Source: Fibrobacteria bacterium (GTDB taxonomy: Bacteria; Fibrobacterota; Chitinivibrionia; Chitinivibrionales; FEN-1185). Taken from it: a DNA stretch of 64,000 nt. The stretch covers positions 64,001 through 128,000 of the forward strand of contig JBBIGR010000004.1 in assembly GCA_037447435.1 (NCBI GenBank), written 5' to 3'. The translations under genes were made by a program, and so were the position numbers. Within the stretch, counting starts at the first letter, position 1. Every line of letters starts with the position of its first letter. The notes under the pieces are model-generated. The model was not told the origin of the DNA. It searched no databases and was given only the letters and a program-made list of their open reading frames with translations. Shown here in pieces: positions 8,091 to 23,442 of the stretch.

Positions 8091-8618
8091 TCATTCATCA
8101 CGAAGGGTTTTTACCAGGCGCGCACGGGCCAACTCCAATAATCTGAGAACCCCCGGCTCCTTATAATCCGGATAAGTCCATGAAAAAAACCTGAAATTTC
8201 CCTTCCGGTAATGAAGCGTGACTTCGCCGAATATACCCTGAGACAAATAAATTCTATGGTAAAAATCCTTCGTACTAGCCAAAATCAGTTTATCGCGGGT
8301 AATATATCCCGGATCAAGGTTTATCGTGCGTTTTCCATTTATTGCGTATCGTGCTTCAATTCCGTTGGTCACGTTTTTTATCGTCGATAACGCTTCCCTG
8401 TCTATATACTTTTCAAACACGCAATATGTTTTTTGCAGATCATTTCCCATTTCATTTTCGTAATATCCAGTATGATGAAACGGCACGGGACCGAATATTC
8501 TATCGACAGGACCGTACCTATCGGTGAGAAGCCTTACTACTTCGTCAAGTGGTACCGACCGCTGGAGCATAATTCCCATAAAAAGAACCGCGTTGTACGG
8601 CACGGACGCTTCACCCAT
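8091..8618 (-). CDS. DUF4416 family protein
   Basis: YYENEMG, RTINLDPGY, LASTKDFYHRIYL, WTYPDY motifs. Confidence 0.85.
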   Translation of the reverse strand: MGEASVPYNAVLFMGIMLQRSVPLDEVVRLLTDRYGPVDRIFGPVPFHHTGYYENEMGNDLQKTYCVFEKYIDREALSTIKNVTNGIEARYAINGKRTINLDPGYITRDKLILASTKDFYHRIYLSQGIFGEVTLHYRKGNFRFFSWTYPDYKEPGVLRLLELARARLVKTLRDE

Positions 8619-8761: not shown

Positions 8762-9124
8762 ATGCAATTTCTTTTGACCTTGCAAAAGAAAAACGATCAT
8801 ACGGTGTTTAACCTTGCCGGCGATCTGAATTACGAAGGCGCCTGCAAGCTTAAAAACACGTTCAACGAGGTTCTGGCCGGCGGAGAAGTACATTTTGTTC
8901 TTGATTTGACCGGGCTTAAAATTATTTCAAGTTATGCCTTGTCTACTATTCTGAAATTATCGTATATGGCAAAAAAAATGGACGGTTCGGTCAACATCAT
9001 CTGTGGGCAGGGAAATGTGTGGGATGTATTTTATGTGCTCGAAGTCGGTAAAGTCATCCCGGTATTCGAATCAATCGAAGCATTTTTGGCTTCTAAATCA
9101 AACGCCGGAACATCATCGCAGTAG
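8762..9124 (+). CDS. STAS-domain protein (anti-sigma-factor antagonist type)
   Basis: LAGDLNY...VLDLTGLKIISSYAL...IPVFES; SD GGAG upstream. Confidence 0.85.
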   Translation: MQFLLTLQKKNDHTVFNLAGDLNYEGACKLKNTFNEVLAGGEVHFVLDLTGLKIISSYALSTILKLSYMAKKMDGSVNIICGQGNVWDVFYVLEVGKVIPVFESIEAFLASKSNAGTSSQ

Positions 9125-9148
9125 AATTATAGTAAAGGATATTATCGG

Positions 9149-10486
9149 GTGGCACGCTCATTAAGTTTTTCAGGAGGAATTTTTCCTCCAAAAAATCTTC
9201 AGAATCCTGAATCCCTTGTTGTCGAGGAACTTTCGCAACCGCCTCGCATTTATTTGCCGTTATTACAACATTCCGGCGCAATTGCAAATGCCGTAGTAAA
9301 ACGCGGGGACCGGGTACGCAGAGGCCAAATTATCGGCGAAATATCCCAAAACCTTTCCGCGGCAATTCACAGTCCTATTTCCGGATCTGTTTCGGCAATA
9401 ACGCCGGTTCAGCATCCGAGCGGAAAACAGGTACTCGGCATCGAAATCGAAAACGACGGTGAAAACACACCTTTCGAAATGACCGGTATGTCAACGCCGT
9501 GGAAAGAAGCAGCACCGCAGGAAATTATTCAGAAAATTCTTTCATGCGGCATCGTCGGCATGGATAATGACGGTTTTCCCATCCACGTAAAACTTTCGCC
9601 CCCTGCCGACAAAGCGATCGATACCCTTTGCATCGACGCGACCCAAAACGAACCGTATGTTGCAAGCGACCTGCCGTTGCTTATCGAGAAAACGGAAGAC
9701 ATTCTAACCGGCGTTCTTATTGCGAAAAAAGTGCTCGGCGCAACAAAGACGATTTGTGCTGCGATGTTCGAAAATACAAGCATGGTCGATGCCTTGAAAA
9801 AAGCGCTTGAAGACGTTCGGTTTAAAGATATTCAGCTCGTGCTCACAAAATCAAAGTATCCCCAGGGTGCTGAAAAAATACTGGTTAAAACGCTTACAAA
9901 ACGAGAAACCCCGATCGGCGGTTCTCCCCTCGATATAGGATGCGTCGTATTGAATGTTTCAACCTGTTATGCAATATTTAATGCCGTTTGCAATGGGATT
10001 CCACTGTATCAAAGGATTGTGACCGTTGCAGGCCCCTGCGTAAAAACCCCAAAAAATCTGCTCGTACCGTTCGGTACGCCGATTTCGTACCTGCTGCGGC
10101 ATTGCGACACCGATATGGCGCGTGTTAAAAAAGTCATTGTCGGCGGACCTCTTCGAGGCCTCGCGCAAGCGGAGGTCGACGTGCCGATCATTAAAACAAG
10201 CACTGCGGTTTTAGCGTTCGATACCTTGACAGAGGGGATCAAACGATTCGATTGCATAAGCTGCGGCAGATGCGTCCGCGTGTGCCCCATGAGGCTCACG
10301 CCGTGTTACCTAATGAAATTTGTCAATATGGATAAAAACGCCGAAGCGATAAACTGGGGTGTTCAAGATTGTATAGAATGCGGCTCATGCTCGTTTGTGT
10401 GCCCGTCAAAAATCAACCTTGTCCATTTCATTAAATTAGGAAAATATCGGGCAGAATCCACTACCTCTACGGTAAAAAAGAATTGA
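9149..10486 (+). CDS. rnfC: Rnf complex subunit C (divergent flavin/NAD-binding motifs)
   Basis: FSGGIFP, LQHSGA, IHSPISG, YPQGAEK; two ferredoxin motifs CISCGRCVRVCP and CIECGSCSFVCPS; first gene of a C-D-G-E-A-B order. Confidence 0.93.
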   Translation: MARSLSFSGGIFPPKNLQNPESLVVEELSQPPRIYLPLLQHSGAIANAVVKRGDRVRRGQIIGEISQNLSAAIHSPISGSVSAITPVQHPSGKQVLGIEIENDGENTPFEMTGMSTPWKEAAPQEIIQKILSCGIVGMDNDGFPIHVKLSPPADKAIDTLCIDATQNEPYVASDLPLLIEKTEDILTGVLIAKKVLGATKTICAAMFENTSMVDALKKALEDVRFKDIQLVLTKSKYPQGAEKILVKTLTKRETPIGGSPLDIGCVVLNVSTCYAIFNAVCNGIPLYQRIVTVAGPCVKTPKNLLVPFGTPISYLLRHCDTDMARVKKVIVGGPLRGLAQAEVDVPIIKTSTAVLAFDTLTEGIKRFDCISCGRCVRVCPMRLTPCYLMKFVNMDKNAEAINWGVQDCIECGSCSFVCPSKINLVHFIKLGKYRAESTTSTVKKN

Positions 10487-10491
10487 ATACC

Positions 10492-11538
10492 ATGACAGAT
10501 TCAAACACAACATTGGACAATTCCGGCGCCTTGCTTCACCTTTCAACGAGCCCGCATATCCGACATACCGAAGCGGTCGGTTCCATCATGCTGTCGCTTG
10601 TTTTGGCGCTTATCCCGGCCTGCATCGCCGCATTTTTCATTTTTGGGATATCGGCTTTTTTGGTTATCGGCGTGACCATCGTCGCCAGCGTGGGCACCGA
10701 AAGCGTCATTCAATGGCTTACAAAAAAGAAACAATCGATACGCGATTTAAGCGCCGTGGCAACGGGATTGCTTTTGGCGCTGACGTTGCCGCCGCATTGC
10801 CCCCTCTGGATAGCGGCAATCGGCGCCGTTTTCGCAATCGCGCTCGTTAAAATGCCGTTCGGCGGCCTCGGACATTCGCTTGTCAATCCTGCGTTGGCAG
10901 GCCGGACGTTTTTGCTGCTATCGTTTCCTGCGGCGCTTACGAAGTATACGGCACCGTTGCACGGATCGATTTTCGGCTTGCCGCATCCGCTCGACGGCGT
11001 CACCGCGGCAACCCCTTTGGTCTACTACAAAAACGCGCTTTTAACGGGCGTTTTCAACCCTCTTGATCTGCAGGACACGTTGCCGAATTTATTTTGGGGC
11101 AACGTCGGCGGGAGTCTCGGGGCAACGTCGACGGTGGCCCTGTTCGTCGGCGCGATGTTTCTCTTCTATAAAGGCATCATCCGATTCAGGATTTCATTGT
11201 CGTTCATCGGAACCGTATTTCTCCTTTTCTGGATTTTCAATAAAACCGGCGGTTTTTTCACGACCGAAGCATTGATCGTCCCGATGTATCAAATCATGTC
11301 GGGCGGATTGATACTGGGCGCTTTTTTTATGGCAACCGACCCGGTTACCTCTGCCGTCACCCAAAACGGGAAATTCCTCTTCGGGATCGGATGCGGAGTC
11401 CTGACATTCCTTTTTCGATCCTTCGGCAGTTTTCCCGAAGGCGTCGGATTTGCCATTTTGCTCATGAATATCTGTGTGCCCCTCATAGACCGGTTTTCCA
11501 GACCCAAACGTTTCGGCGAGGTAAAAAAACATGAATGA
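10492..11538 (+). CDS. rnfD: Rnf complex subunit D
   Basis: SPHIR, FGGLG...NPALAGR, DGVTAATPL (FMN-Thr motif), FFMATDPVTS, PEGVGFAILLMN. Confidence 0.95.
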   Translation: MTDSNTTLDNSGALLHLSTSPHIRHTEAVGSIMLSLVLALIPACIAAFFIFGISAFLVIGVTIVASVGTESVIQWLTKKKQSIRDLSAVATGLLLALTLPPHCPLWIAAIGAVFAIALVKMPFGGLGHSLVNPALAGRTFLLLSFPAALTKYTAPLHGSIFGLPHPLDGVTAATPLVYYKNALLTGVFNPLDLQDTLPNLFWGNVGGSLGATSTVALFVGAMFLFYKGIIRFRISLSFIGTVFLLFWIFNKTGGFFTTEALIVPMYQIMSGGLILGAFFMATDPVTSAVTQNGKFLFGIGCGVLTFLFRSFGSFPEGVGFAILLMNICVPLIDRFSRPKRFGEVKKHE

Positions 11539-11722
11539 CGTCGTTAAATCGATACTTTCGATTTCGTTCATCGCCATGGTGTGCGGTCTCATTGCCGCTC
11601 TGTCATTTAATTCCGTCAAACCGGACCCGGTATTTTGCATCGGCAATTACAATGCGCATGTAACGCCCTCATTCACCTTGGATTCCACACCGCCTCAAGC
11701 AGGCATGGGAGCATCGCAATGA
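11531..11722 (+). CDS. 63-aa membrane peptide at the rnfG position (RnfG N-terminal anchor only)
   Basis: Single TM helix ILSISFIAMVCGLIAALSF like RnfG N-termini; overlaps the rnfD stop by 8 nt and shares ATGA with the rnfE start; no FMN-binding domain. Confidence 0.7.
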   Translation: MNDVVKSILSISFIAMVCGLIAALSFNSVKPDPVFCIGNYNAHVTPSFTLDSTPPQAGMGASQ

Positions 11723-12309
11723 AAAGCGATTTGAAAGATTGGTTTGTCAATAAAAACCCCGTGTTTACCATGGCCATGGGACTGTGTCCGGCAATTGCGG
11801 TCACGACGAATTTGAAGAATGCCGCAGGAATGGGGTTTTGCACGCTCTGTGTGCTCGTCGCGTCGAACGCTACCGTATCAATCGCCAGGAAATGGATCCA
11901 TTATAAGGTCCGGATTCCCTGCTATTTGCTCATCATTTCAATGTGGGTTACGATTGCCGATATTATCCTGAGCGCAAATTTCCCGGTGCTGCGCCAAAAT
12001 CTTGGAATTTTCATTCCGCTTATTGCGGTCAATTGCATAATTCTCAACCGATCCGATTCATTTGCATCCAAAAACAAACTGAAAGACTCGATATTCGACG
12101 CATTAAGCACGGGTTTCGGTTTTTTTCTGGTCCTTGCCATATGCGGTTTCATCCGCGAACTGGTAGGATCGAATAAAATCTTGGGACTTACGAGCATAGG
12201 GCATTTTCAAGGAATTCAGGCATTTTCCTATGCATGCGGGGGCTTTTTCTGCTTTGCATTGCTTTTTGCGGCGCTAAATGCCTACAGAACGGCGGGTAAA
12301 CACCAATGA
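11719..12309 (+). CDS. rnfE: Rnf complex subunit E
   Basis: ATG 11719 with SD GGGAG; NPVF...GLCPAIAVT, VRIP, LGIFIPLIAVNCII, IRELVG. Confidence 0.95.
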   Translation: MKSDLKDWFVNKNPVFTMAMGLCPAIAVTTNLKNAAGMGFCTLCVLVASNATVSIARKWIHYKVRIPCYLLIISMWVTIADIILSANFPVLRQNLGIFIPLIAVNCIILNRSDSFASKNKLKDSIFDALSTGFGFFLVLAICGFIRELVGSNKILGLTSIGHFQGIQAFSYACGGFFCFALLFAALNAYRTAGKHQ

Positions 12310-12929
12310 TTCCATTTCAATCCGTTTTAGAAACCTTCGTTTCTTCGATGCTTGTCAACAACATCGTTTTTATCCTGATGATCGGGGTTTGTCCCTTTTG
12401 CGCCCTGCCGAAAAAAATGTCGCAATCGCTGGGAATGGGATTCACGGTTGTCGGCGTCATGGCCGTCGCCGGTGCTGTCGGTTACGCACTGAACCGGTAT
12501 ATTCTAATGCGCAACAATCTGTTTTATCTTCAGACAATGGTCTTTATCCTGGTCATCGTCATTATCGTACAGCTCATCGAATTACTGGTCGAAAAATTCT
12601 GGCCGTCGGCATACGAATCGATCAGTTCGTTTCTCCCTTCGATTACGACGAATTGCGCGGTACTTGCGGTATGCATCATGGCGTGCAACACATTGTCGAA
12701 CCATAATCAGGCATCCTCGTTCGCAAAATCGACCGTTGTCAACATCGGTTGCGGATTCGGGTATTTACTCGCCGTTATTCTGATGGCGGGCATCAAACGA
12801 AAACTCGAAATGACCGAAATTCCAAGGCCGTTCAAAGGCCTCCCTATCGCCCTGCTGTCCGCAGGACTGGTATCCATGGCTTTTATCGGTTTTTCCGGAT
12901 TCACTTTTACCACACTGTTCGGAGGATAA
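12306..12929 (+). CDS. rnfA: Rnf complex subunit A
   Basis: VNNIVF...GVCPF, SLGMG, ITTNCAVL, IPRPFKGLPIAL...MAFIGFSG. Confidence 0.95.
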   Translation: MIPFQSVLETFVSSMLVNNIVFILMIGVCPFCALPKKMSQSLGMGFTVVGVMAVAGAVGYALNRYILMRNNLFYLQTMVFILVIVIIVQLIELLVEKFWPSAYESISSFLPSITTNCAVLAVCIMACNTLSNHNQASSFAKSTVVNIGCGFGYLLAVILMAGIKRKLEMTEIPRPFKGLPIALLSAGLVSMAFIGFSGFTFTTLFGG

Positions 12930-12933
12930 CGCT

Positions 12934-13953
12934 TTGGGCATTTTTCTCCCCATTGTTTGTTTGGGATTGTTAGGGCTTGCTTTCGGGCTCTTGGTTTCAA
13001 TTACAACTAAACGAGTATCGGTTTTCTCAAATCACACCATTCAAAAAATCAAAGACGCTCTCCCTAATGTCAATTGCGGGGTTTGCGGATATGCGACCTG
13101 TGCCGCATTTGCAAAAGCCGTTGCCGAAGGAAAGAAAGAACCCACGGGATGCATACCCGGAGGCGCCAAAAGCGCGCATGCTATCGGCGATATTCTCGGT
13201 ATCACCGTCACCCTTTCCGAACCGCATATGGCCATTGTAAAATGCAAAGGCGGCGATAAAGAAGCCGCAATGCGCTGCGTATACGATGGAATTCACGACT
13301 GTCATGCGGCAATTTTGGCGGGAAACGGTCCCAAAACCTGCGTCGACGGCTGCTTAGGACTCGGCAGTTGCGTCAAGGCATGTCCCTTTAACGCGCTCTC
13401 CATCAACGAAAACAATGTCGCTGTTGTAAACCCCGACGCCTGTACCGGATGCGGTGCGTGCGTCTCGGTATGTCCGCGCGGCATCATAGATCTCATCCCC
13501 ACGGTACACAAAATCTACCTCGCCTGCTCGAACCACGACCGCGGCGCCAGGGTAAAGAAATATTGCGAAGTCGGATGCACGTCGTGCACGCTTTGCGTCA
13601 AATCGACGCCGTCGGACGCGATCACGATGGTAAACAATCTCCCTGTTCTCAATTATAAAGCTTTGGAAAACTTCGTCGTTGCGGCGTATTCATGCCCGTC
13701 GCATTGTTTTGTGGACCTCGTTAAACATCGTCCCAAAGTGAATATCGATGCAAAATGCGACGGTTGCACGTTGTGCGTGAGCTCATGCCCCACAACGGCG
13801 ATATCCGGAGAAAAAGGCATGCGCCACGTGGTAAACAAAGAAAAATGTATCGGATGCGGGTTATGTTTAAACCGATGCCCGGTCCACGCGATTGCCATGT
13901 GGGGCGGACTCGGTTATGCCGAAGGCAGCAGAAAACGACGAGCCCGTATCTGA
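12934..13953 (+). CDS. rnfB: Rnf complex subunit B (polyferredoxin)
   Basis: TTG start with GGAGG SD; N-terminal TM; LPNVNCGVCGYATC...CIPGG; several CxxCxxCxxxCP motifs. Confidence 0.94.
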   Translation: MGIFLPIVCLGLLGLAFGLLVSITTKRVSVFSNHTIQKIKDALPNVNCGVCGYATCAAFAKAVAEGKKEPTGCIPGGAKSAHAIGDILGITVTLSEPHMAIVKCKGGDKEAAMRCVYDGIHDCHAAILAGNGPKTCVDGCLGLGSCVKACPFNALSINENNVAVVNPDACTGCGACVSVCPRGIIDLIPTVHKIYLACSNHDRGARVKKYCEVGCTSCTLCVKSTPSDAITMVNNLPVLNYKALENFVVAAYSCPSHCFVDLVKHRPKVNIDAKCDGCTLCVSSCPTTAISGEKGMRHVVNKEKCIGCGLCLNRCPVHAIAMWGGLGYAEGSRKRRARI

Positions 13954-13970
13954 TCGATCGAGGAAAAACT

Positions 13971-15212
13971 TTACCCGGCAATCCCCTTTTTTCTGAGAAT
14001 ATCCCCGCAGCAAAGAGCGGGTTCCGTTTTGCAATATACAAGCCTGTTTGTTTTTGCACAGCCGATACGGTTGCCGTTTGCGTCGCGCAAATCAACAACG
14101 GTGGCGTCAAACGGTTCCGATCCGATTTTTCCCGGTAAAACCGATACGGTGTCTTCGAGGTTAAACGGATTCTTCACGTCGACGATAGGCCCCTTTTCCC
14201 CTTGTATTTCACGGACCACGCCGACGACCCTGTAGTCTTTTCCAAGGCGCTCGTTGCGTATGTCCTGTAAAATCATTTCCGTTCCGTAAAATCCGGTCGT
14301 GTACGGTCTGTGGTCCAATCGTTCCAATTCCTCTTTCCACGACGCTTTAACGGAATATTCTGTTCGGTTCATTTGCATACTGTCTAATGCGGCCCGGTAC
14401 ACCGAAACGACCGATGAGACATAATGGACACTGCGGTTACGGCCTTCTATTTTCAACGAAGAAACGCCGCTTTCGACAATGCGATCGAGAATCGGCAATG
14501 CATTCAGATCTTTGGAATTCAATACATACGCGGTTTTTTCATCGATGTATTCCTCTATTGTCAAAAATTCCTCCGAGGGCGGGCCCGATTGAAACACGGG
14601 CGCTATTGAATATTGCAAACGGCACGGTTGCGGGCAATCGCCGAAATTGGGGTGGCGCATTCCCCTGTACGCACCGAGCAAACAACGCCCCGATACGGAT
14701 ACGCACATGGCGCCGTGGACGAAAACTTCGGTCTCTACCCCCGATTGCTTAGTAAGAAAGGCGATCTGCGCCACGGTCAATTCTCTGGGCAAAATGACCC
14801 TGCGTATCCCCTGCGCGGCCCAAAACCGCGCGCTTTCGGCATTGAAAGTGCCGGTCTGCGTACTTAAATGTAAAGGAATATCGGTATGTTTTTTACAAAG
14901 GGAAAACACGCCCGGGTCGCTGACGATATAAGCATCGACGCGATGGGGCAGTTTGTGGATTGCCTGCACGATTGCCGCAACGTCGCATAGCATATCGTCG
15001 CTCGGCATCACATTGAGGGCGCCGTACACTTTTTTTCCTTTGTCATGAGCCATGCTGCAAAGGTCCGCAATTTCCGATGCGGAAAAATTGATACTGTGTG
15101 CGCGCAAATTTAAATTGCCGCAACCGGCATATACGGCATCCGCGCCATGGTCGAACGCAGCTTGCGCAACGCTGAAGGAAGCCGCGGGTGCCAACAATTC
15201 GGGTAGTTTCAT
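13971..15212 (-). CDS. U32 family peptidase-like protein (TrhP/YegQ-like tRNA hydroxylation family)
   Basis: PELLAPA, GADAVY, HLSTQ, EVFVHGAMCVSVSGRCLL, CPQPCR, SLKIEGR, RPYTTGFY. Confidence 0.9.
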   Translation of the reverse strand: MKLPELLAPAASFSVAQAAFDHGADAVYAGCGNLNLRAHSINFSASEIADLCSMAHDKGKKVYGALNVMPSDDMLCDVAAIVQAIHKLPHRVDAYIVSDPGVFSLCKKHTDIPLHLSTQTGTFNAESARFWAAQGIRRVILPRELTVAQIAFLTKQSGVETEVFVHGAMCVSVSGRCLLGAYRGMRHPNFGDCPQPCRLQYSIAPVFQSGPPSEEFLTIEEYIDEKTAYVLNSKDLNALPILDRIVESGVSSLKIEGRNRSVHYVSSVVSVYRAALDSMQMNRTEYSVKASWKEELERLDHRPYTTGFYGTEMILQDIRNERLGKDYRVVGVVREIQGEKGPIVDVKNPFNLEDTVSVLPGKIGSEPFDATVVDLRDANGNRIGCAKTNRLVYCKTEPALCCGDILRKKGIAG

Positions 15213-17664: not shown

Positions 17665-20600
17665 TCACCACGCTTCTTTTTTTGCAGCAGCCGCGTTCGA
17701 CGGTTGTTTTTCGGAATGTTGCAAAACAAAATTATACAAACTTTGAATTTTCGCATCGTTGGAACGCAATTTATCCGCTTTTTCAAGGAGCGGCAAAGCG
17801 TCCGAATACCGTTCGGTTTTAACATACCCTCTGGACAACTGATACATAAAATCGGGATCATTCGGTTTCAACGCATTTGCCATTTCCAAAAACACCATGG
17901 CGTCGTTTGCCTGATGTTTTTCCAGAAGCGTCACGCCGATATCTTCACAAGCAAGAGGATTCGACGCGTCGCGCTGTATGTATTGCTGATACGCCTCAAG
18001 CTCCAGCTTCGGCCGTCCCGTTTTCCCGTAAATTTTACCTAAATCGATCCAGAGAGTCGGAATACTGTCTTTTTGCGTAAGGAATTTCTTTAAAAAAAGC
18101 GAGGCCTTTTCCAGGGTTGCCGGTTGCTTTGCATACAATAATCCGGCGCCCAAAAGGTTCCGTATGTCTTTGGGATACAAAGCGGCATTTTGTTCGTATA
18201 TCGCGGCGGCCAGCGGTATGCTGACTTTCTCCGTCAGTTGCGCCTTTCTGTACGATGCGTCGGCATCTTTTACCTCAGGAAATTTCGTATAGGCATTATA
18301 TGCGGCGGTCGCATTGGCATTATCGCCGAGATTGTCGTACGATTCCGCAAGCATTTTAAACATGAGCGCCCCATGCGGGTTTACTTTTTTTCCGTCCCGG
18401 TAAAACCCTTTCAAATATTCCAGGACTTCCGCGCATTGCTTGTAATACTTGCCGTTGTAATACGCTTTGCCGAGCAAATACCAGTATTCGGGGTCATTGG
18501 TCTGGTCCTTGGGAATTTTTGCAAGTAAACGTATTGTCCCGTCATAATCCTTGTTTTTATACGCGTCCTGGGCAAGCATCATCGCAATGCCCGGATCATT
18601 CGGCGCTTTTGCCGCATATTTCTTATACGCCTCCGCCGCCTGGTCGGGTTTATTCTGTTTTGTATATAGATCCCCGAGGATTTTATATTCCGTAATCGCG
18701 TCGGGATTAATGGCGACCGCCTGTTGATAAGTCACAATCGCATCCATGATATCTCCCGATTTCGCATAGCAGCGGGCAAGCGACGAAATCACCGTGAAGT
18801 TCCGCTGATCGAGTTGCAATGCCTTATTGTAATAGGAAATCGCCTTTGGATAAAACGTTTTCTTTTCATACGTACTTCCAAGGGTCGCATACATGGTCGC
18901 ATCGGCTTCGCCGGCACCGATTGCCGCGTTGAGAACCATGAGGACTTCCTCGGGAGTTCCCCGTGCAACCACAAGTTCCGCGTATCGCTTGAATATCCCT
19001 TTAATGTGCGGATTAACCGAAAATGCGGCCCGATATGCCAGATACGCACCGCTTTGGTCTTTTTGATCGTACAGAAAATCGGCCAGGTCTTTTTGCGCGT
19101 CCGCATCTTTGGGTCTTTGCGCCGTGTATTTGCGCAAAAACGCCATGGCGCCGTCCTTATCATTCGTCTTTACGCACAAATCGAATAACGTCTTATTGAT
19201 ACCGACATCCAGCGGCGTCAATACGGCAAGTTTCCTGTACAATTCCTTTGCTTTAGGATAATCGTTCTGCTGAAGGCACGCAAAGGCGTACATGGAAAGT
19301 ATCGGCGCCTGGGATACCATTTCCGAAGGAACAAGCGCGAAATATTTTGCCGTCGCGTCATAATCCTTTTTCTTGAAAGAATACTCCGCAATCATTTTGG
19401 CAAGCCCGTATTCCTTCGGTTGTTTTTCAAGATATTTTTTATATACCGACATGGCCTGGTCGGTTTTCATTTGCTGCATGTACATGTCGCCGAGCGTTTT
19501 TAAAATCTTCTGGTCCTGCGGATTCAAGGCCACGACCTGTTCGTAGGTTATCGAAGCTTCGGTGACGTCGCCGGTTTTCGATTGACATGCTGCAAGCGAC
19601 ATGAGAACCGGGACATTTTTCGAATCGTATTGCAACGCTTTTTGATACATCGGTATGGCTTTTGCAAAGGCGGCCTTCTTTTCATAAGCCCCGCCGAGCG
19701 CCGCATACACGCCGGCATCGCCCTCGCCCGCCTTGACGGCAGCCGAATACACCGCCATGATTTCGTCGGCAGTACCGTTTTTCGCGACGACTTCGCAATA
19801 CCTTTTGTAACTCCCTTTTATGGCGGGATCCGCAACCATTGCCGCATGATAGGCGGCACCCGCCAAAGCCATGTCTTTCCGATCGTACAACGCATCGGCC
19901 AAATCGCGTTGCGCCTGGGCGTCTTTCGGGCTTAACGCCGCAAACCGTTTGAGATGCGACAGGGCTTCTTCTTTGTCGCCGTCACGCATGCACAAATCAT
20001 ACAAAGTCTTTTCTATAAGCGGGTCTTGCGGCGCAAAGGCCACCATTTGCTTATACAGCATTTTCGCTTTTGTATATTCCTTGGTCTGATAATACGATTG
20101 CGCAAGCATAGACAATAAGCCTGTTCGTTTCGAATCGTTGCCGGAAACCATAGACAAATACCGGACCGCTTCGGCGTAATTTTTCGATGCGTACTCCTTT
20201 TCGCCGACAATATACGCGACATCGAAATCGCGGGGTTCTTTTTCGAGGTATTTTTTATAGACGTTATGGGCCGCGTCCTTTTTGCCCAATTTCGTATACG
20301 TTTCCGCCAACTGTTTATACAGCTTCGAATCGGTCGGGTTTAAGGCGATAAGTTGCTCATAGGTAATCGAGGCTTCGGCCGCGTTGCCCGCCTTAAGCTG
20401 GCAATTCGCCAAAAGAGTAAGCACCGGCAGGTTCTTGGGGTCAACCGCCAGCGCCTTTTGACATAAAGGAATCGCCTTTGAATAAAGCCCCTGTTTAAAA
20501 TAGGAATTTGCCTGCGCGGCATACATGGCCGCGTCCGCTTCGCCGGCATTGACTGCGCCGCTGAGGGCAAAATCGACATCCGCTGCGGTCCCTTTTTTCG

Positions 20601-23376
20601 TGGCAAGGTCAAAGTACCTTTTATAAATGCCTTTCAAAGTCGGATCGGTTGCCAAGGCCCCCTTGTATGCGGCAAAGGCGCCCGCCTCGTCCTTCTGCGA
20701 ATACAGTAAATCGCCCAAATCTTTCTTTGCAACCGCGTCCGTCGGTTTTAATGCGACATATTTGCGTAAATAGCCCGCAGCGTCTTTCGCAAGGTCATTA
20801 TCCGCCGCGCATACCGAATACAATAACTTGTACAGTTCGGGATTTTGCGGGGAGATGGCGGCCAATTGCGTCAGGACCGAAAATGCCTTTTTGTAATTTT
20901 TGGCGAAATAACTCGCCTGTCCGAAATGGAAAAGAAACTCGGAGCGTTTCGCATCCTCGCCCGAAACCATAGAGAAAAACCGGGATGCATCCTCGTAATT
21001 TTTTTGTTTGTATGCATACTCGCCGACAAAAGCAGCTATTTTGCCGTCCTGGCTCCGTTTTTCAAGGTATTTCTTGTACACCGACACCGCATCCGCTTCC
21101 CTGTTCTTCTTCACGTACAAATCGCCGAGCATTTTATATTCGTCAATTGCAGCCGGATTCAACGCCACGACCTGTTCAAACGATATTGTCGCGGCATCCG
21201 CTGCCCCGGTAGCAAGCTGGCAACGCGCGAGCCCGCTTAACACCAAGACGTTTTTAGGCTCCAAATTAAGGGCCTTTTGGTATAATTCGAGCGCCTTGCC
21301 GCACAATCCCTGCTTTTGATATACCGCGGCCAATGCCCCGTACATGCTTGCATCGGCTTCTCCTGCCGCAATGGCACCGGCCATGGCCGCGTTCATTTCC
21401 TCTTTCGTGCCTTTGATGCTTACAAGTTGAGAATACTGCTTGTAAATCCCTTTGATTTTCGGATCGAGTTTAAGGGCGGTGCGATACGCCGTAAGAGCGG
21501 CGTCGAAGTTTTTCTGGTCGAAATACAAATTTCCGAGGTTTTTCTGGGCAATCGGATCTGCGGGACTCAGGGTCAGGTATTTTTTCAAATAGCCTGCCGC
21601 GGCAATTTTATCGCCGGCATTATTGGCAATGTCGTACAAGTTTTTAAAAACGTCCCCGTTTTGGGGGGACATAACGCTCAGTTCTTTGTATAAATCGTAG
21701 GCCTGCTTATAATCCCGCTGGTCAAGATAGTATTTGGCGAGCCGAAGGCGCGACTCGATGTTCCCTTTTTCGAGTTCAATGATTTTTTTGTCCAAAAACG
21801 ACAAATTGGTCGCGTCGTTCAATTGTTTGTAACAATATGCCAATTGTTTGATATATTCCAATTCATACGGCTTTTTCGCTATGAGAAACTCAAGTTGTTC
21901 CTTGGCTTCTTTGTATTGGTTGTTGCGGAAAAATCCTTTCGCAAGCACCATCCGGGGTTCCAAAACCGACGGATCGAAATGAACCGCCGACTCTGCCGCG
22001 TCTATGGCCTTGTCCCATTTGTCCAAGGCGGCTGCGGAAAGGGCCAGCCCGGTTGCCGCCTGCGGCGATTTTGCGATATAAAAACTTTTTTCATAATACT
22101 TGAGCGCGTCGGAATACCGTTTCGCCTTCAGGTTGTAATCGCCGAGAGTGAGAAAAACCTTGGGATCGTTGGGGCTGAGGGCGGTTATTTTTTCAAAAGT
22201 CTGTTTCGCTTTTTCCAATTGATTGTTGCGTTGATATAAATCGGCCAACCGTGCGTATGCCTCGACATTGTTTTTATCCGATGCAACGGCCTTTTCCAAG
22301 CTCGCAATCGCTTTTGCCGTCATTCCGGCTCCGTTATACGCATCGGCCAAAAGGAAATTGATGTCCGGAACCAGATGCGAATCGCTGTCGGCCGCGGCGA
22401 TCGCCCTGAAATGGGAAATTGCGCTTTCATAATTCTTTTTCTCCAAATCCGCCTTGCCGGCTTTGGAATGCGAAATGATGGCTTCGGGCTCGGCCGAAAA
22501 GCCGAACGCGTCTGCGGCAAGGTTATATGCTTTTAACGCACTTTCCATGCTGCCTGTTTTTTCCTGCGATACCGCCCGGCAGTATTGGTCCATGGCACTC
22601 AGCTTGATTTTTCCCGCAATTTTTTCAAATTCATTCGCAGCGGCGAGGAATTTGTCTTTTTGATAATAGGCCTTGGCCAAATCAAGGTTTGCATTCAGCA
22701 AGTTAGGATTACGCGTTATTGCTTCTTTCAGGTAAAATATCGCCGAATCCAGTTTGTTCGATTCGAGGAGCGAGCGTCCTATTTTATACGCATCGTCGGC
22801 ATTGGGCTGGGATGCGTAGGCGACTCTGAGCAACGGAATGGCCCGTTTGTAATCTTTTTCTTCCCAATAAATGTCCGCAAGTCCCCTGCTGGCGGCCGCA
22901 TTGGAAGGATCGGCGTTAATGACCCGCTCAAGCGCGCTTTTGGCGTCTTTTACCCGTTTCAATGCCATGCATGCCCTGGCATATTCCCAGCTTGCTTCGC
23001 CGGTAGGATTGACATCGACGGCTTTTTGCGCATAGGTCAAGGCATTGTCGGGTTGATTCAGCTTATTGTAAATTCGGGCGATGCTGTAGTAGGCCGTATA
23101 GTTCTTAGCGTCCATCCGCGAGCCGACGAAATAACACGCCAACGCCTTCTCGTTCAGGCCCAATGCTTCATCCGCTGACCCGAGCTTTACCCACACGTCG
23201 GCGGTACGGTTTGCCGACGGCAATTTATCGTCTGCATAGGCTACCGCTTCGGAGTATTTCTGGGTTCTGATCAATCTGTCCAATGTTTCGTCGGCAAACA
23301 AAAAACTTGCCGTACCATAAAAGACAACGACGCAAATACATCCTATCAGGCGTTGTTTATAACCGGCCATTTGCAT
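17665..23376 (-). CDS. Giant exported tetratricopeptide-repeat protein (about 1900 aa)
   Basis: SD AAGGAG before ATG 23376; signal peptide ending SFLFA; continuous 34-aa TPR periodicity to the C-terminus. Confidence 0.92.
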   Translation of the reverse strand: MQMAGYKQRLIGCICVVVFYGTASFLFADETLDRLIRTQKYSEAVAYADDKLPSANRTADVWVKLGSADEALGLNEKALACYFVGSRMDAKNYTAYYSIARIYNKLNQPDNALTYAQKAVDVNPTGEASWEYARACMALKRVKDAKSALERVINADPSNAAASRGLADIYWEEKDYKRAIPLLRVAYASQPNADDAYKIGRSLLESNKLDSAIFYLKEAITRNPNLLNANLDLAKAYYQKDKFLAAANEFEKIAGKIKLSAMDQYCRAVSQEKTGSMESALKAYNLAADAFGFSAEPEAIISHSKAGKADLEKKNYESAISHFRAIAAADSDSHLVPDINFLLADAYNGAGMTAKAIASLEKAVASDKNNVEAYARLADLYQRNNQLEKAKQTFEKITALSPNDPKVFLTLGDYNLKAKRYSDALKYYEKSFYIAKSPQAATGLALSAAALDKWDKAIDAAESAVHFDPSVLEPRMVLAKGFFRNNQYKEAKEQLEFLIAKKPYELEYIKQLAYCYKQLNDATNLSFLDKKIIELEKGNIESRLRLAKYYLDQRDYKQAYDLYKELSVMSPQNGDVFKNLYDIANNAGDKIAAAGYLKKYLTLSPADPIAQKNLGNLYFDQKNFDAALTAYRTALKLDPKIKGIYKQYSQLVSIKGTKEEMNAAMAGAIAAGEADASMYGALAAVYQKQGLCGKALELYQKALNLEPKNVLVLSGLARCQLATGAADAATISFEQVVALNPAAIDEYKMLGDLYVKKNREADAVSVYKKYLEKRSQDGKIAAFVGEYAYKQKNYEDASRFFSMVSGEDAKRSEFLFHFGQASYFAKNYKKAFSVLTQLAAISPQNPELYKLLYSVCAADNDLAKDAAGYLRKYVALKPTDAVAKKDLGDLLYSQKDEAGAFAAYKGALATDPTLKGIYKRYFDLATKKGTAADVDFALSGAVNAGEADAAMYAAQANSYFKQGLYSKAIPLCQKALAVDPKNLPVLTLLANCQLKAGNAAEASITYEQLIALNPTDSKLYKQLAETYTKLGKKDAAHNVYKKYLEKEPRDFDVAYIVGEKEYASKNYAEAVRYLSMVSGNDSKRTGLLSMLAQSYYQTKEYTKAKMLYKQMVAFAPQDPLIEKTLYDLCMRDGDKEEALSHLKRFAALSPKDAQAQRDLADALYDRKDMALAGAAYHAAMVADPAIKGSYKRYCEVVAKNGTADEIMAVYSAAVKAGEGDAGVYAALGGAYEKKAAFAKAIPMYQKALQYDSKNVPVLMSLAACQSKTGDVTEASITYEQVVALNPQDQKILKTLGDMYMQQMKTDQAMSVYKKYLEKQPKEYGLAKMIAEYSFKKKDYDATAKYFALVPSEMVSQAPILSMYAFACLQQNDYPKAKELYRKLAVLTPLDVGINKTLFDLCVKTNDKDGAMAFLRKYTAQRPKDADAQKDLADFLYDQKDQSGAYLAYRAAFSVNPHIKGIFKRYAELVVARGTPEEVLMVLNAAIGAGEADATMYATLGSTYEKKTFYPKAISYYNKALQLDQRNFTVISSLARCYAKSGDIMDAIVTYQQAVAINPDAITEYKILGDLYTKQNKPDQAAEAYKKYAAKAPNDPGIAMMLAQDAYKNKDYDGTIRLLAKIPKDQTNDPEYWYLLGKAYYNGKYYKQCAEVLEYLKGFYRDGKKVNPHGALMFKMLAESYDNLGDNANATAAYNAYTKFPEVKDADASYRKAQLTEKVSIPLAAAIYEQNAALYPKDIRNLLGAGLLYAKQPATLEKASLFLKKFLTQKDSIPTLWIDLGKIYGKTGRPKLELEAYQQYIQRDASNPLACEDIGVTLLEKHQANDAMVFLEMANALKPNDPDFMYQLSRGYVKTERYSDALPLLEKADKLRSNDAKIQSLYNFVLQHSEKQPSNAAAAKKEAW

Positions 23377-23442
23377 ATTCTCCTTTTTCCCATCCAACAG
23401 TGAAGCAGCACTTCAAAAGCAATTCCCTTTTTAATAATTTCG

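Follow-up and report, generated by a model that had tools for sequence, protein, structure and literature searches.

In solved Rnf structures, the gap of 29-35 Å from AE to RnfG/RnfD is bridged only via the RnfG head (PMC9588780; PMC12174285); without this head the electron path through the membrane is interrupted. In the same structures the RnfG helix packs against the RnfB helix, RnfC holds RnfB and RnfD holds RnfC. The RnfG substitution T185A abolished activity in A. woodii (bioRxiv 10.1101/2024.06.21.599731), and the pumping subunit of Rnf is itself debated. Among the relatives of Rnf, NqrA of Na+-NQR is an RnfC homologue that was kept after flavin loss and for which a structural scaffold role is proposed (PMC12174285), and a published account describes tp0147-tp0153 of Treponema pallidum as a conserved, co-transcribed Rnf-derived operon without an identifiable RnfG-type flavinylation motif (PMC4436053).

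We analysed a window of 64,000 nucleotides from a Fibrobacteria bacterium of the order Chitinivibrionales, which encodes five full Rnf subunits and an RnfG remnant in CDGEAB order, as follows.

8091..8618, minus strand: DUF4416 gene (PF14385), divergent, identifies the ancestral rnf locus by synteny, lies outside the complex
8762..9124, plus strand: STAS/anti-sigma-factor-antagonist-like protein of 120 aa (PF01740), 24 nt 5' of rnfC
9149..10486, plus strand: rnfC, 445 aa (TIGR01945, 420 bits), eroded FMN/NAD pocket, both [4Fe-4S] motifs intact
10483..11538, plus strand: rnfD, 351 aa (TIGR01946, 323 bits; 7ZC6_D alignment), FMN Thr177 and riboflavin ligands Asn135/Asp286 kept
11531..11722, plus strand: mini-rnfG, 63 aa (hhalign), N-terminal TM helix and short variable tail without FMN-binding domain
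11719..12309, plus strand: rnfE (NF009070), Cys23/Cys106 kept, constraint relaxed in the genus
12306..12929, plus strand: rnfA (PF02508), Cys29/Cys117 kept, constraint relaxed in the genus
12934..13953, plus strand: rnfB (TIGR01944), TM helix and long polyferredoxin, the best-conserved subunit

An earlier, sequence-only reading had described six open frames in C-D-G-E-A-B order, and all are indeed open without internal stops (junctions C/D, D/G, G/E, E/A and A/B of -4, -8, -4, -4 and +4 nt); its coordinate range opened at 8762, which belongs to a seventh gene, STAS (8762-9124). A second possible rnfD start is the ATG at 10492. Curated NCBIfam cut-offs were passed by RnfC, RnfD, RnfE (NF009070) and RnfB, and RnfA lay above the Pfam PF02508 threshold and below TIGR01943. 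Assignment to Na+-NQR does not fit, with scores below Nqr cut-offs and RnfB present where NqrF is expected, nor does assignment to the Nqr/Rnf-like two-subunit complexes, with RnfD unfused and the RnfG head absent. A separately assembled contig, possibly from the same sample, covers 8847-14000 with zero differences, which speaks against mis-assembly. Promoter and terminator scans of the locus gave no excess over shuffles. No description of this Rnf variant was found in literature search listings, whose coverage excluded most subscription journals and all supplements.

The missing RnfG flavin domain, already recognised in the sequence-only reading, reflects the reduction of RnfG to a 63-aa membrane anchor. 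This mini-G ORF had no Pfam or NCBIfam match, and no PF04205 match was found in this operon; hhalign matched its profile to positions 1-31 of orthologous RnfG (92.9%, E 3.7e-7), and mini-G is therefore the RnfG TM helix. The relatives share it, since an ORF of 60-80 aa occurs in 6/6 genomes of the genus, which excludes mis-assembly at rnfG; its dN/dS in relatives is 0.32-0.56. Among the 67 genomes of the order examined, orthologous full RnfG was present in 52 and was not found in this genus (g1), g22, g33 or G018; as a control, all 59 loci of other phyla having D and E carried full-length RnfG. A weak RnfG match in G002 belongs to the second operon of that genome. Because the gap between AE and RnfG/RnfD needs the RnfG head, the operon should be unable to work alone as Fd:NAD+ oxidoreductase, a claim of the sequence-only reading for which the 29-35 Å distance and the A. 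woodii T185A result both argue. It is extremely unlikely that RnfG or NqrC of other operons completes a working Rnf in trans: this genome (G000) does have a full RnfG on contig C9 and NqrC/Nqr on contig C5, and among further proposed ion-handling residues the window keeps the equivalents of RnfE R67 and RnfA Q85/E88/T110 (RnfE E115 is replaced by D), but neither a second rnfC nor an RnfG-type FMN_bind gene was found in G003, G004 and G005, the mini-G helix would fill the RnfG site, and the RnfC pocket is eroded too.

The FMN loop of RnfC is replaced, as had been noted earlier, GGA reading DND (G139D/G140N/A141D); these positions are G, G and A in 41, 41 and 40 of 41 canonical relatives. The changes N163D, G164A, E166Q, C167N and M336R had escaped that reading, and the resulting motifs GMDNDGFP, DATQNEP and GGPLRG depart from the FMN/NAD consensus (G-[LM]-G-G-A-x-F-P; N-G-A-E-C-E-P; G-G-P-M-M), with F143, K148, E168, Y237, E242 and N269 retained. 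We take the roles of single pocket residues, by analogy, to be those of NuoF, and we infer from the sequence that RnfC has lost FMN. Both [4Fe-4S] motifs are present with 8/8 Cys, which are kept in 18/18 remodelled loci, and the predicted structure (AF2 pLDDT 91.5) superposes on chain C of 9ERI/8AHX/7ZC6 with TM 0.93-0.94. Of the two features proposed for comparison among relatives, mini-G is shared by the genus genomes; the DND loop is confined to the lineage of the window (2/11 genus loci), and other members eroded the pocket differently, each lineage through different residues. RnfC divergence within the genus is about 50%, and the identity of its flavin domain is 56% vs 70% in the canonical set. 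An eroded pocket was also seen in 19 of the 150 top RnfC cluster representatives, all 19 retaining 8 Cys (the cluster look-up returned no taxa for 10/19).

The RnfD Thr, the RnfA/E Cys and the RnfC Fe-S motifs had been read correctly as kept. T177, N135 and D286 of RnfD correspond to C. tetanomorphum T153, N124 and D248; N124 is kept in 17/17 and D248 in 16/16 remodelled loci, and T153 in 11/11 genus loci, being lost in G006 and g22. The RnfD FMN loop has 69% identity in the genus vs 56% in canonical operons. The proposed ion-site residues E185/N90 are replaced (E214A, N101T), which had gone unnoticed; E185 is kept in 43/43 canonical relatives. The four Cys for the membrane [2Fe-2S] cluster, RnfE C23/C106 and RnfA C29/C117, are present, kept in 9/9 genus loci and lost in g22 and G018. 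The sequence-only reading had regarded this membrane Fe-S core as the intact, conserved heart of the complex, a view we could not uphold: across the genus, ancestral invariant sites are kept at 27/81 in RnfA and 30/77 in RnfE vs 82/95 in RnfB, A/E identity is 52-54% vs 76% in canonical operons, and both subunits are absent from the same-genus locus L176 and from genus g33. RnfA and RnfE are the most relaxed subunits. RnfB has its TM helix, mobile cluster domain and polyferredoxin, with 27/28 invariant Cys kept in all remodelled loci and a C-terminal ferredoxin domain of 84% identity across the genus vs 73% in the canonical set. Its TM helix is lost in G058 and G067 and replaced in L176, where G/E/A are deleted, and RnfB must therefore hang on C-D there. 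The Cys of the mobile cluster domain are kept even where the A/E acceptor is deleted.

Such retained ligands favour the model of the sequence-only reading, in which the half-wires RnfB-A/E and RnfD-RnfC trade electrons with an outside acceptor or an independent extracytoplasmic flavoprotein: T153, N124, D248 and the A/E Cys persist in the genus, where conservation of the RnfD FMN loop is high. The proposed search for a second rnf/nqr, orphan FMN_bind and apbE found all of them in this genome; apbE occurs in 6/6 genomes of the genus, this one included, and a membrane-anchored orphan FMN_bind protein in 5/6. However, the orphan gene is unlinked to rnf, has varying neighbours and is also present in many genomes whose Rnf is canonical; none was found in G003 (98% complete), G006 or three g22 genomes. 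Moreover, A/E are deleted in same-genus L176, G006 and g22 have lost T153, and no hydride donor is evident at the RnfC end, all of which leaves this partnership weak and, in our judgement, distinctly unlikely.

The operon is the ancestral, syntenic Rnf of Chitinivibrionales; most of the order's operons, canonical as well as remodelled, have DUF4416 located 5' of rnfC. It is full-length in most of the order and remodelled in 6/6 genomes of the genus. The remodelled series runs from mini-G (g1) through Cys-less A/E (g22, G018) to deletion of G/E/A (g33, L176); for metagenome loci, 4/10 (L175, L178, L179, L181) were removed as duplicates before counting. The only rnfC of G003-G005, and of g22 genomes where rnfC was found, is the remodelled one. 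We reject a recent pseudogene or relaxed duplicate as a general explanation: synteny marks this operon as the ancestral copy, the second Rnf of G000 is placed in a separate clade, and G003-G005 have a single rnfC. In the gyrB tree (26 genomes, G033 and G058 missing), canonical G007 adjoins the genus (support 100/99); in the C+D+B tree all remodelled copies group together on long branches (one version omits 16/44 rows). By AU test, p was 0.024 with family f5 kept together and 0.10 with the genus plus G007.

Close orthologues of the STAS gene were detected in 8/8 family genomes and 0/23 others (one weak match); its dN/dS is 0.05-0.18. The gene is probably co-transcribed with rnf and its product is likely not an Rnf subunit. 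A redox sensor, in which the Fe-S chain signals the ferredoxin redox state to STAS in a partner-switching circuit loosely like Rsx-SoxR, would agree with the location of STAS directly 5' of rnfC in 6/6 genus genomes and G006, its family-specific conservation and its invariant Ser57. Yet STAS lies next to DUF4416 in G007, whose RnfC/D/G are canonical, and in L182 as DUF4416-STAS without rnf, and g22, g33 and G018 are remodelled without STAS; this makes a sensor very unlikely.

Purifying selection acts on the operon, and the earlier proposal that it is maintained stands, with dN/dS far below 1 when calculated (rnfB/C/D 0.07-0.28). Genus pairs gave C 0.07-0.28, D 0.08-0.16, B 0.08-0.19, E 0.13-0.23 and A 0.13-0.26, vs A 0.01-0.05 and E 0.02-0.08 in canonical pairs, an increase of about 4-fold for A/E; RnfD in the genus is as constrained as in canonical operons. 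For the lineage of the window, where the calculation covers only STAS, rnfC and 208 codons of rnfD, RnfC dN/dS is 0.07 at dS 1.6. The DUF4416 neighbour, used as a control, is also about 2-fold higher in the genus, and part of the relaxation is therefore lineage-wide; by gyrB, members of the genus are more alike than those of the canonical set (identity 85% vs 77%). Invariant sites kept in all remodelled loci number 71/95 in B, 31/114 in C, 29/92 in D, 5/77 in E and 3/81 in A, and constraint falls from B through D and C to E, A and mini-G.

Slow decay is a real rival to the relay explanation given below, although we consider it unlikely. The pump would have become redundant after the arrival of Ech or a second Rnf, with stepwise gene loss braked only by folding and assembly constraints, as the graded series, the lineage-specific erosion of the RnfC pocket and the raised A/E dN/dS would suggest. 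Three further cases speak for decay: codon 249 in the rnfB of G062 is followed by a 1-nt frameshift, no rnfC was found in G063 (98% complete; its rnfA-B at a contig end), and L182 is without rnf. Against it, C/D/B dN/dS is 0.14/0.12/0.11 in the C-D-B-only operons G058/G067, after G/E/A loss, RnfC is strongly constrained in the lineage of the window, the Fe-S Cys are essentially invariant, and frames examined are open save G062 rnfB despite the RnfC divergence within the genus.

Most remodelled genomes carry Ech hydrogenase and/or a second full Rnf, and this genome has both plus Nqr. PF00346 (complex I/Ech-type large subunit) was detected in 12/13 remodelled genomes vs 13/48 others, an association that rests on about 4-6 related lineages, and in 5/5 further remodelled genomes. 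G003 shows a six-gene Ech layout, and both NiFe motifs occur in 3/3 Ech-type subunits checked; the large subunits of g33 and G018 are NiFe-less and not true Ech, and Ech-type matches also occur in canonical G007, G050, G053, G055 and G060.

The explanation we favour, at about an even chance of being right, is that an ancestral Rnf without RnfG head and with an eroded RnfC pocket is selected for holding the RnfB polyferredoxin at the membrane as an electron relay, not a pump. Ion pumping from ferredoxin would have been handed to Ech (in this genome also to the second Rnf), RnfC and RnfD would be retained mainly as a dock for RnfB, and mini-G, RnfE and RnfA would be sheddable structural leftovers; RnfB may exchange single electrons with cytoplasmic ferredoxin-dependent enzymes, e.g. 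Ech or pyruvate:ferredoxin oxidoreductase. The relay is supported by the retention of RnfB Fe-S ligands, the eight RnfC Cys and RnfD riboflavin ligands throughout the remodelled lineages. Several points count against it: T153 and A/E Cys retention in the genus and the RnfD constraint exceed the needs of a pure scaffold; NqrA suggests, by analogy, that an RnfC scaffold can dispense with clusters, which would leave their retention unaccounted for; the G062, G063 and L182 cases fit poorly; part of the relaxation is lineage-wide; and the Ech association has few lineages behind it, with NiFe-less subunits in g33 and G018 and Ech-type matches in canonical genomes too.

A bolder proposal, which we rate as improbable, is that several lineages carved from Rnf a self-standing, pump-independent RnfB-RnfC-RnfD redox module, with the RnfB mobile domain swinging into the emptied RnfC NAD cleft and shorting the old U-shaped path into a new Fe-S-to-riboflavin wire. 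Nqr-like re-routing without pumping, from RnfB through the RnfC clusters and RnfD riboflavin to quinone, would match the retained centres exactly (B and C clusters, riboflavin ligands), and G000 has menB and Nqr; it is nevertheless most improbable, with menB found in only this one of 13 remodelled genomes, MqnA/D in none, and a B-to-C gap of 25 to over 30 Å in solved Rnf.

When Rnf is seen in a genome, ion pumping driven by ferredoxin is read from it; since rnfC/D/B of this operon clear the curated cut-offs, such organisms would be mis-modelled. The stepwise reduction (mini-G, Cys-less A/E, C-D-B only) amounts to a deletion experiment made by nature, which points to a role of RnfB/C/D independent of pumping and, if the module proposal is true, to a second function hidden in Rnf. 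The three-gene operon of g33 is a small, directly expressible test object. The series may also show an intermediate on the way from RnfC to NqrA, and it extends the Rnf-or-Ech alternative to Fibrobacterota.

In comparison with clostridial-type Rnf (rnfCDGEAB; C. tetanomorphum 7ZC6, A. woodii 9ERI; also A. vinelandii 8AHX), the locus shares gene order, five recognisable subunits, the RnfC fold, A/E Cys pairs, RnfD T153/N124/D248 and a long polyferredoxin RnfB, but differs in the absent RnfG FMN domain, the altered RnfC nucleotide loop and NGAECEP motif, the replaced RnfD E185 and N90, and in having A/E as the least, not the most, constrained subunits. Like NqrA, its RnfC is retained with flavin apparently lost; NqrA, however, has shed both [4Fe-4S] clusters as well and operates alongside NqrC and NqrF within a complete pump, whereas here the clusters stay and the flavin shuttle is gone. 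The T. pallidum Rnf likewise has no identifiable RnfG-type flavinylation motif, but is still proposed to be a pump and belongs to a different phylum, and here the RnfD Thr is kept. The Nqr/Rnf-like two-subunit complexes (Meheust; Huang et al., PMC10979944) are also partial, Rnf-derived systems in which a flavinylation site is gone and the path has been re-routed, yet they keep an RnfG-like flavoprotein and an NAD-binding domain without A/E/B/C, whereas here the RnfG head is lost and B, C and D are kept. Finally, E. coli Rsx, the SoxR-reducing system, is similarly an Rnf homologue serving something besides bulk energy conservation, but it differs in carrying flavinylation motifs in both RsxD and RsxG and in drawing on NAD(P)H to reduce SoxR, with RseC (PMC12174285).

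In the window, the ORF reading gave six overlapping frames in the order C-D-G-E-A-B with zero stops, as the sequence-only reading had described, and they are preceded by one further gene:

8762-9124: STAS gene, ahead of the six rnf frames

RnfC, D, E and B of the window passed the curated NCBIfam cut-offs and RnfA passed Pfam only, while profile alignment assigned the 63-aa frame between rnfD and rnfE (mini-G) to the N-terminal membrane helix of RnfG. The predicted structure of RnfC matches the fold of solved RnfC (pLDDT 91.5; TM 0.93-0.94), and its motifs GMDNDGFP, DATQNEP and GGPLRG replace ones nearly invariant in 41-43 canonical relatives. Alignments bore out the sequence-only description of residues kept and lost: eight RnfC Cys (the Fe-S ligands), four A/E Cys and RnfD T153 (C. 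tetanomorphum numbering) are retained, the RnfG flavin domain is gone and the RnfC loop is replaced. Beyond that description, RnfD N124 and D248 are also retained, and RnfD E185 and N90 are not. A separately assembled contig, possibly from the source sample, equals window 8847-14000 without difference. Convergent on rnfB lies a U32 peptidase-family gene (13971-15212, minus strand; TrhP-like, under cut-off), which is not among the operon's conserved neighbours in relatives, and 17665-23397 (minus strand) encodes a 1910-aa protein of TPR-rich appearance by eye.

In 6/6 genomes of the genus (g1) the genes run STAS-C-D-miniG-E-A-B, the RnfC pocket is eroded and RnfD carries E185A. A STAS-alignment search returned 10 metagenome loci, comprising four duplicates, three new mini-G loci, one cut before mini-G, L176 of the same genus (STAS-C-D-B, with G/E/A absent) and L182, with no rnf next to STAS. 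In L176 (9761-10792) the start of RnfB resembles that of RnfE, apparently a fusion produced by an in-frame deletion. The sequence-only reading had asked whether relatives share both mini-G and the DND RnfC; they share the former, whereas the DND loop occurs in 2/11 genus loci, the remainder retaining the glycines, losing the phenylalanine and differing at other positions. Across the order, 52 of the 67 genomes searched yielded an orthologous RnfG, and none was found in g1, two other genera (g22 and g33) or genome G018; full-length RnfG occurs in 59/59 other-phylum loci having D and E. RnfG is absent and A/E lack Cys in g22, A/E are Cys-poor in G018, and g33 has C-D-B only. Locus L137 (G006, contig C47), with full-length RnfG lacking the FMN motif, RnfD lacking the FMN Thr and A/E Cys kept, is by these residues another remodelling state within the same family. 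Judged by trees and topology tests, remodelling may have arisen once or several times. Among the best 150 RnfC cluster representatives, 19 differ at 4 or more of 14 pocket positions. The 8 Cys are present in every one of these 19, and for 16 of them identity to any locus in the comparison set is below 60%; the erosion pattern probably extends beyond the loci studied. At L140 (G012:C617), a strongly eroded rnfC lies downstream of cheB/cheR-like chemotaxis genes, the remaining operon being beyond the contig end.

The remodelled operon is real and under selection. Nei-Gojobori dN/dS with pooled dS, from five genus pairs, was 0.07-0.28 for C, 0.08-0.16 for D, 0.08-0.19 for B, 0.13-0.23 for E, 0.13-0.26 for A, 0.32-0.56 for mini-G and 0.05-0.18 for STAS, values far under 1 that uphold the claim of a maintained operon, versus medians of 0.08 (C), 0.08 (D), 0.06 (B), 0.05 (E) and 0.04 (A) in eight canonical pairs, a ninth pair being unusable through saturation. 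On the window's own lineage, the three testable regions gave 0.05 (STAS), 0.07 (C) and 0.09 (part of D); a g22 pair gave 0.12 (C), 0.16 (B), 0.28 (D), 0.27 (E) and 0.38 (A). Of the invariant sites, those retained throughout the genus loci numbered 82/95 in B, 65/114 in C, 55/92 in D, 30/77 in E and 27/81 in A, and in all remodelled loci 71/95, 31/114, 29/92, 5/77 and 3/81, respectively. The membrane Fe-S core had been proposed as the intact part, but RnfA/E keep the fewest invariant sites and their dN/dS rose about 4-fold in the genus (DUF4416 control, about 2-fold; D, none). Conservation of the RnfB C-terminal ferredoxin tracks gyrB, and A/E, the RnfB TM helix and the RnfC flavin domain lag. 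Against maintenance stand a 1-nt frameshift in rnfB of G062, a search of G063 that found no rnfC, and STAS without rnf at L182. Slow decay of the operon would account for the graded reduction series, but not for dN/dS near 0.1 in three-gene operons (0.11-0.14 where only C-D-B is left).

The window's own genome (G000) also encodes every one of the companions that had been suggested for a search: a second, complete rnf operon on C9, an operon of nqr type on C5, apbE, and an FMN_bind orphan. Descent of the window operon from C9 by decay was rejected: it is 36-38% identical to C9 rnf and 45-55% to relatives' single operons, the two RnfB fall in different clades, and an upstream DUF4416 gene is common to it and canonical operons across the order. 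On these comparisons, the window operon is the ancestral one. A protein name assigns the lineage to Chitinivibrionales. For Chitinispirillum, the portion consulted of PMC4814513 reports a complete rnfCDGEAB.

In the second rnfCDGEAB (L001, G000:C9:16042-21173) RnfG is intact, but RnfE has Ala in place of its second Cys (C108), leaving a three-Cys A/E site; G002, G018 and G058 show the same loss in their second operons, as do 10/61 other-phylum RnfE. The nqr-type operon (L002, G000:C5:21833-27270) has six genes, and a Nuo-like operon of 11 subunits that lacks NuoEFG (L235) lies at about 56900-67100 of C5. This genome further carries seven PF00346 matches and menB, which is unusual for the genus.

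In excerpts on solved Rnf, the RnfG head spans 29-35 A from the A/E cluster to RnfD-FMN, and a distance of 25 to over 30 A separates the clusters of RnfB from those of RnfC (PMC9588780, PMC12174285); RnfG T185A abolished Fd:NAD+ activity in A. woodii (bioRxiv 10.1101/2024.06.21.599731, in part). Because the head bridges this gap and T185A kills activity, by analogy the window complex alone cannot run the textbook Rnf reaction, in agreement with the sequence-only reading. That reading's separate extracytoplasmic flavoprotein, exchanging electrons with the complex, would match RnfD Thr retention in the genus; the sole candidate found, the orphan membrane-anchored FMN_bind protein, is unlinked to rnf and non-specific, which argues against it. 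Its gene (L005, G000:C50:20370-20756) adjoins an EFR1-family flavodoxin-ferredoxin gene. A STAS-based sensor would suit the arrangement of the genes, yet STAS lies ahead of the locus in canonical G007 and in rnf-less L182 as well; a quinone route is disfavoured, as menaquinone genes were not found in 12/13 remodelled genomes.

The A. woodii contacts described in the same preprint excerpt are RnfC-RnfB, RnfD loops-RnfC and the RnfB helix packed on the RnfG helix, so mini-G is best read as a packing helix. RnfB loses its own anchor where G/E/A are deleted, and remodelled loci keep the ligand residues of the B clusters, C clusters and D riboflavin segment, a pattern compatible with D-C-B as a putative tether for a polyferredoxin. 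PF00346 was detected in 12/13 remodelled genomes vs 13/48 others (kin are non-independent, and operons of five of the 48 were not inspected) and in 5/5 further remodelled genomes. The g1 and g22 large subunits examined are true NiFe Ech (3/3); those of g33 and G018 are NiFe-less, yet a second full Rnf is present. We infer that pumping may have moved elsewhere, with RnfB left as a candidate ferredoxin-level relay.

In the literature searched, no description turned up of an Rnf with a mini-G or of one reduced to C-D-B. Two defining Rnf features fail, and the window system, as far as its sequence tells, is therefore derived from Rnf without being a working one. Altered Rnf has precedents in NqrA and, in the parts of the sources consulted, in the non-canonical operon of T. 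pallidum (PMC4436053) and the two-subunit systems of Nqr/Rnf-like type (PMC10979944).
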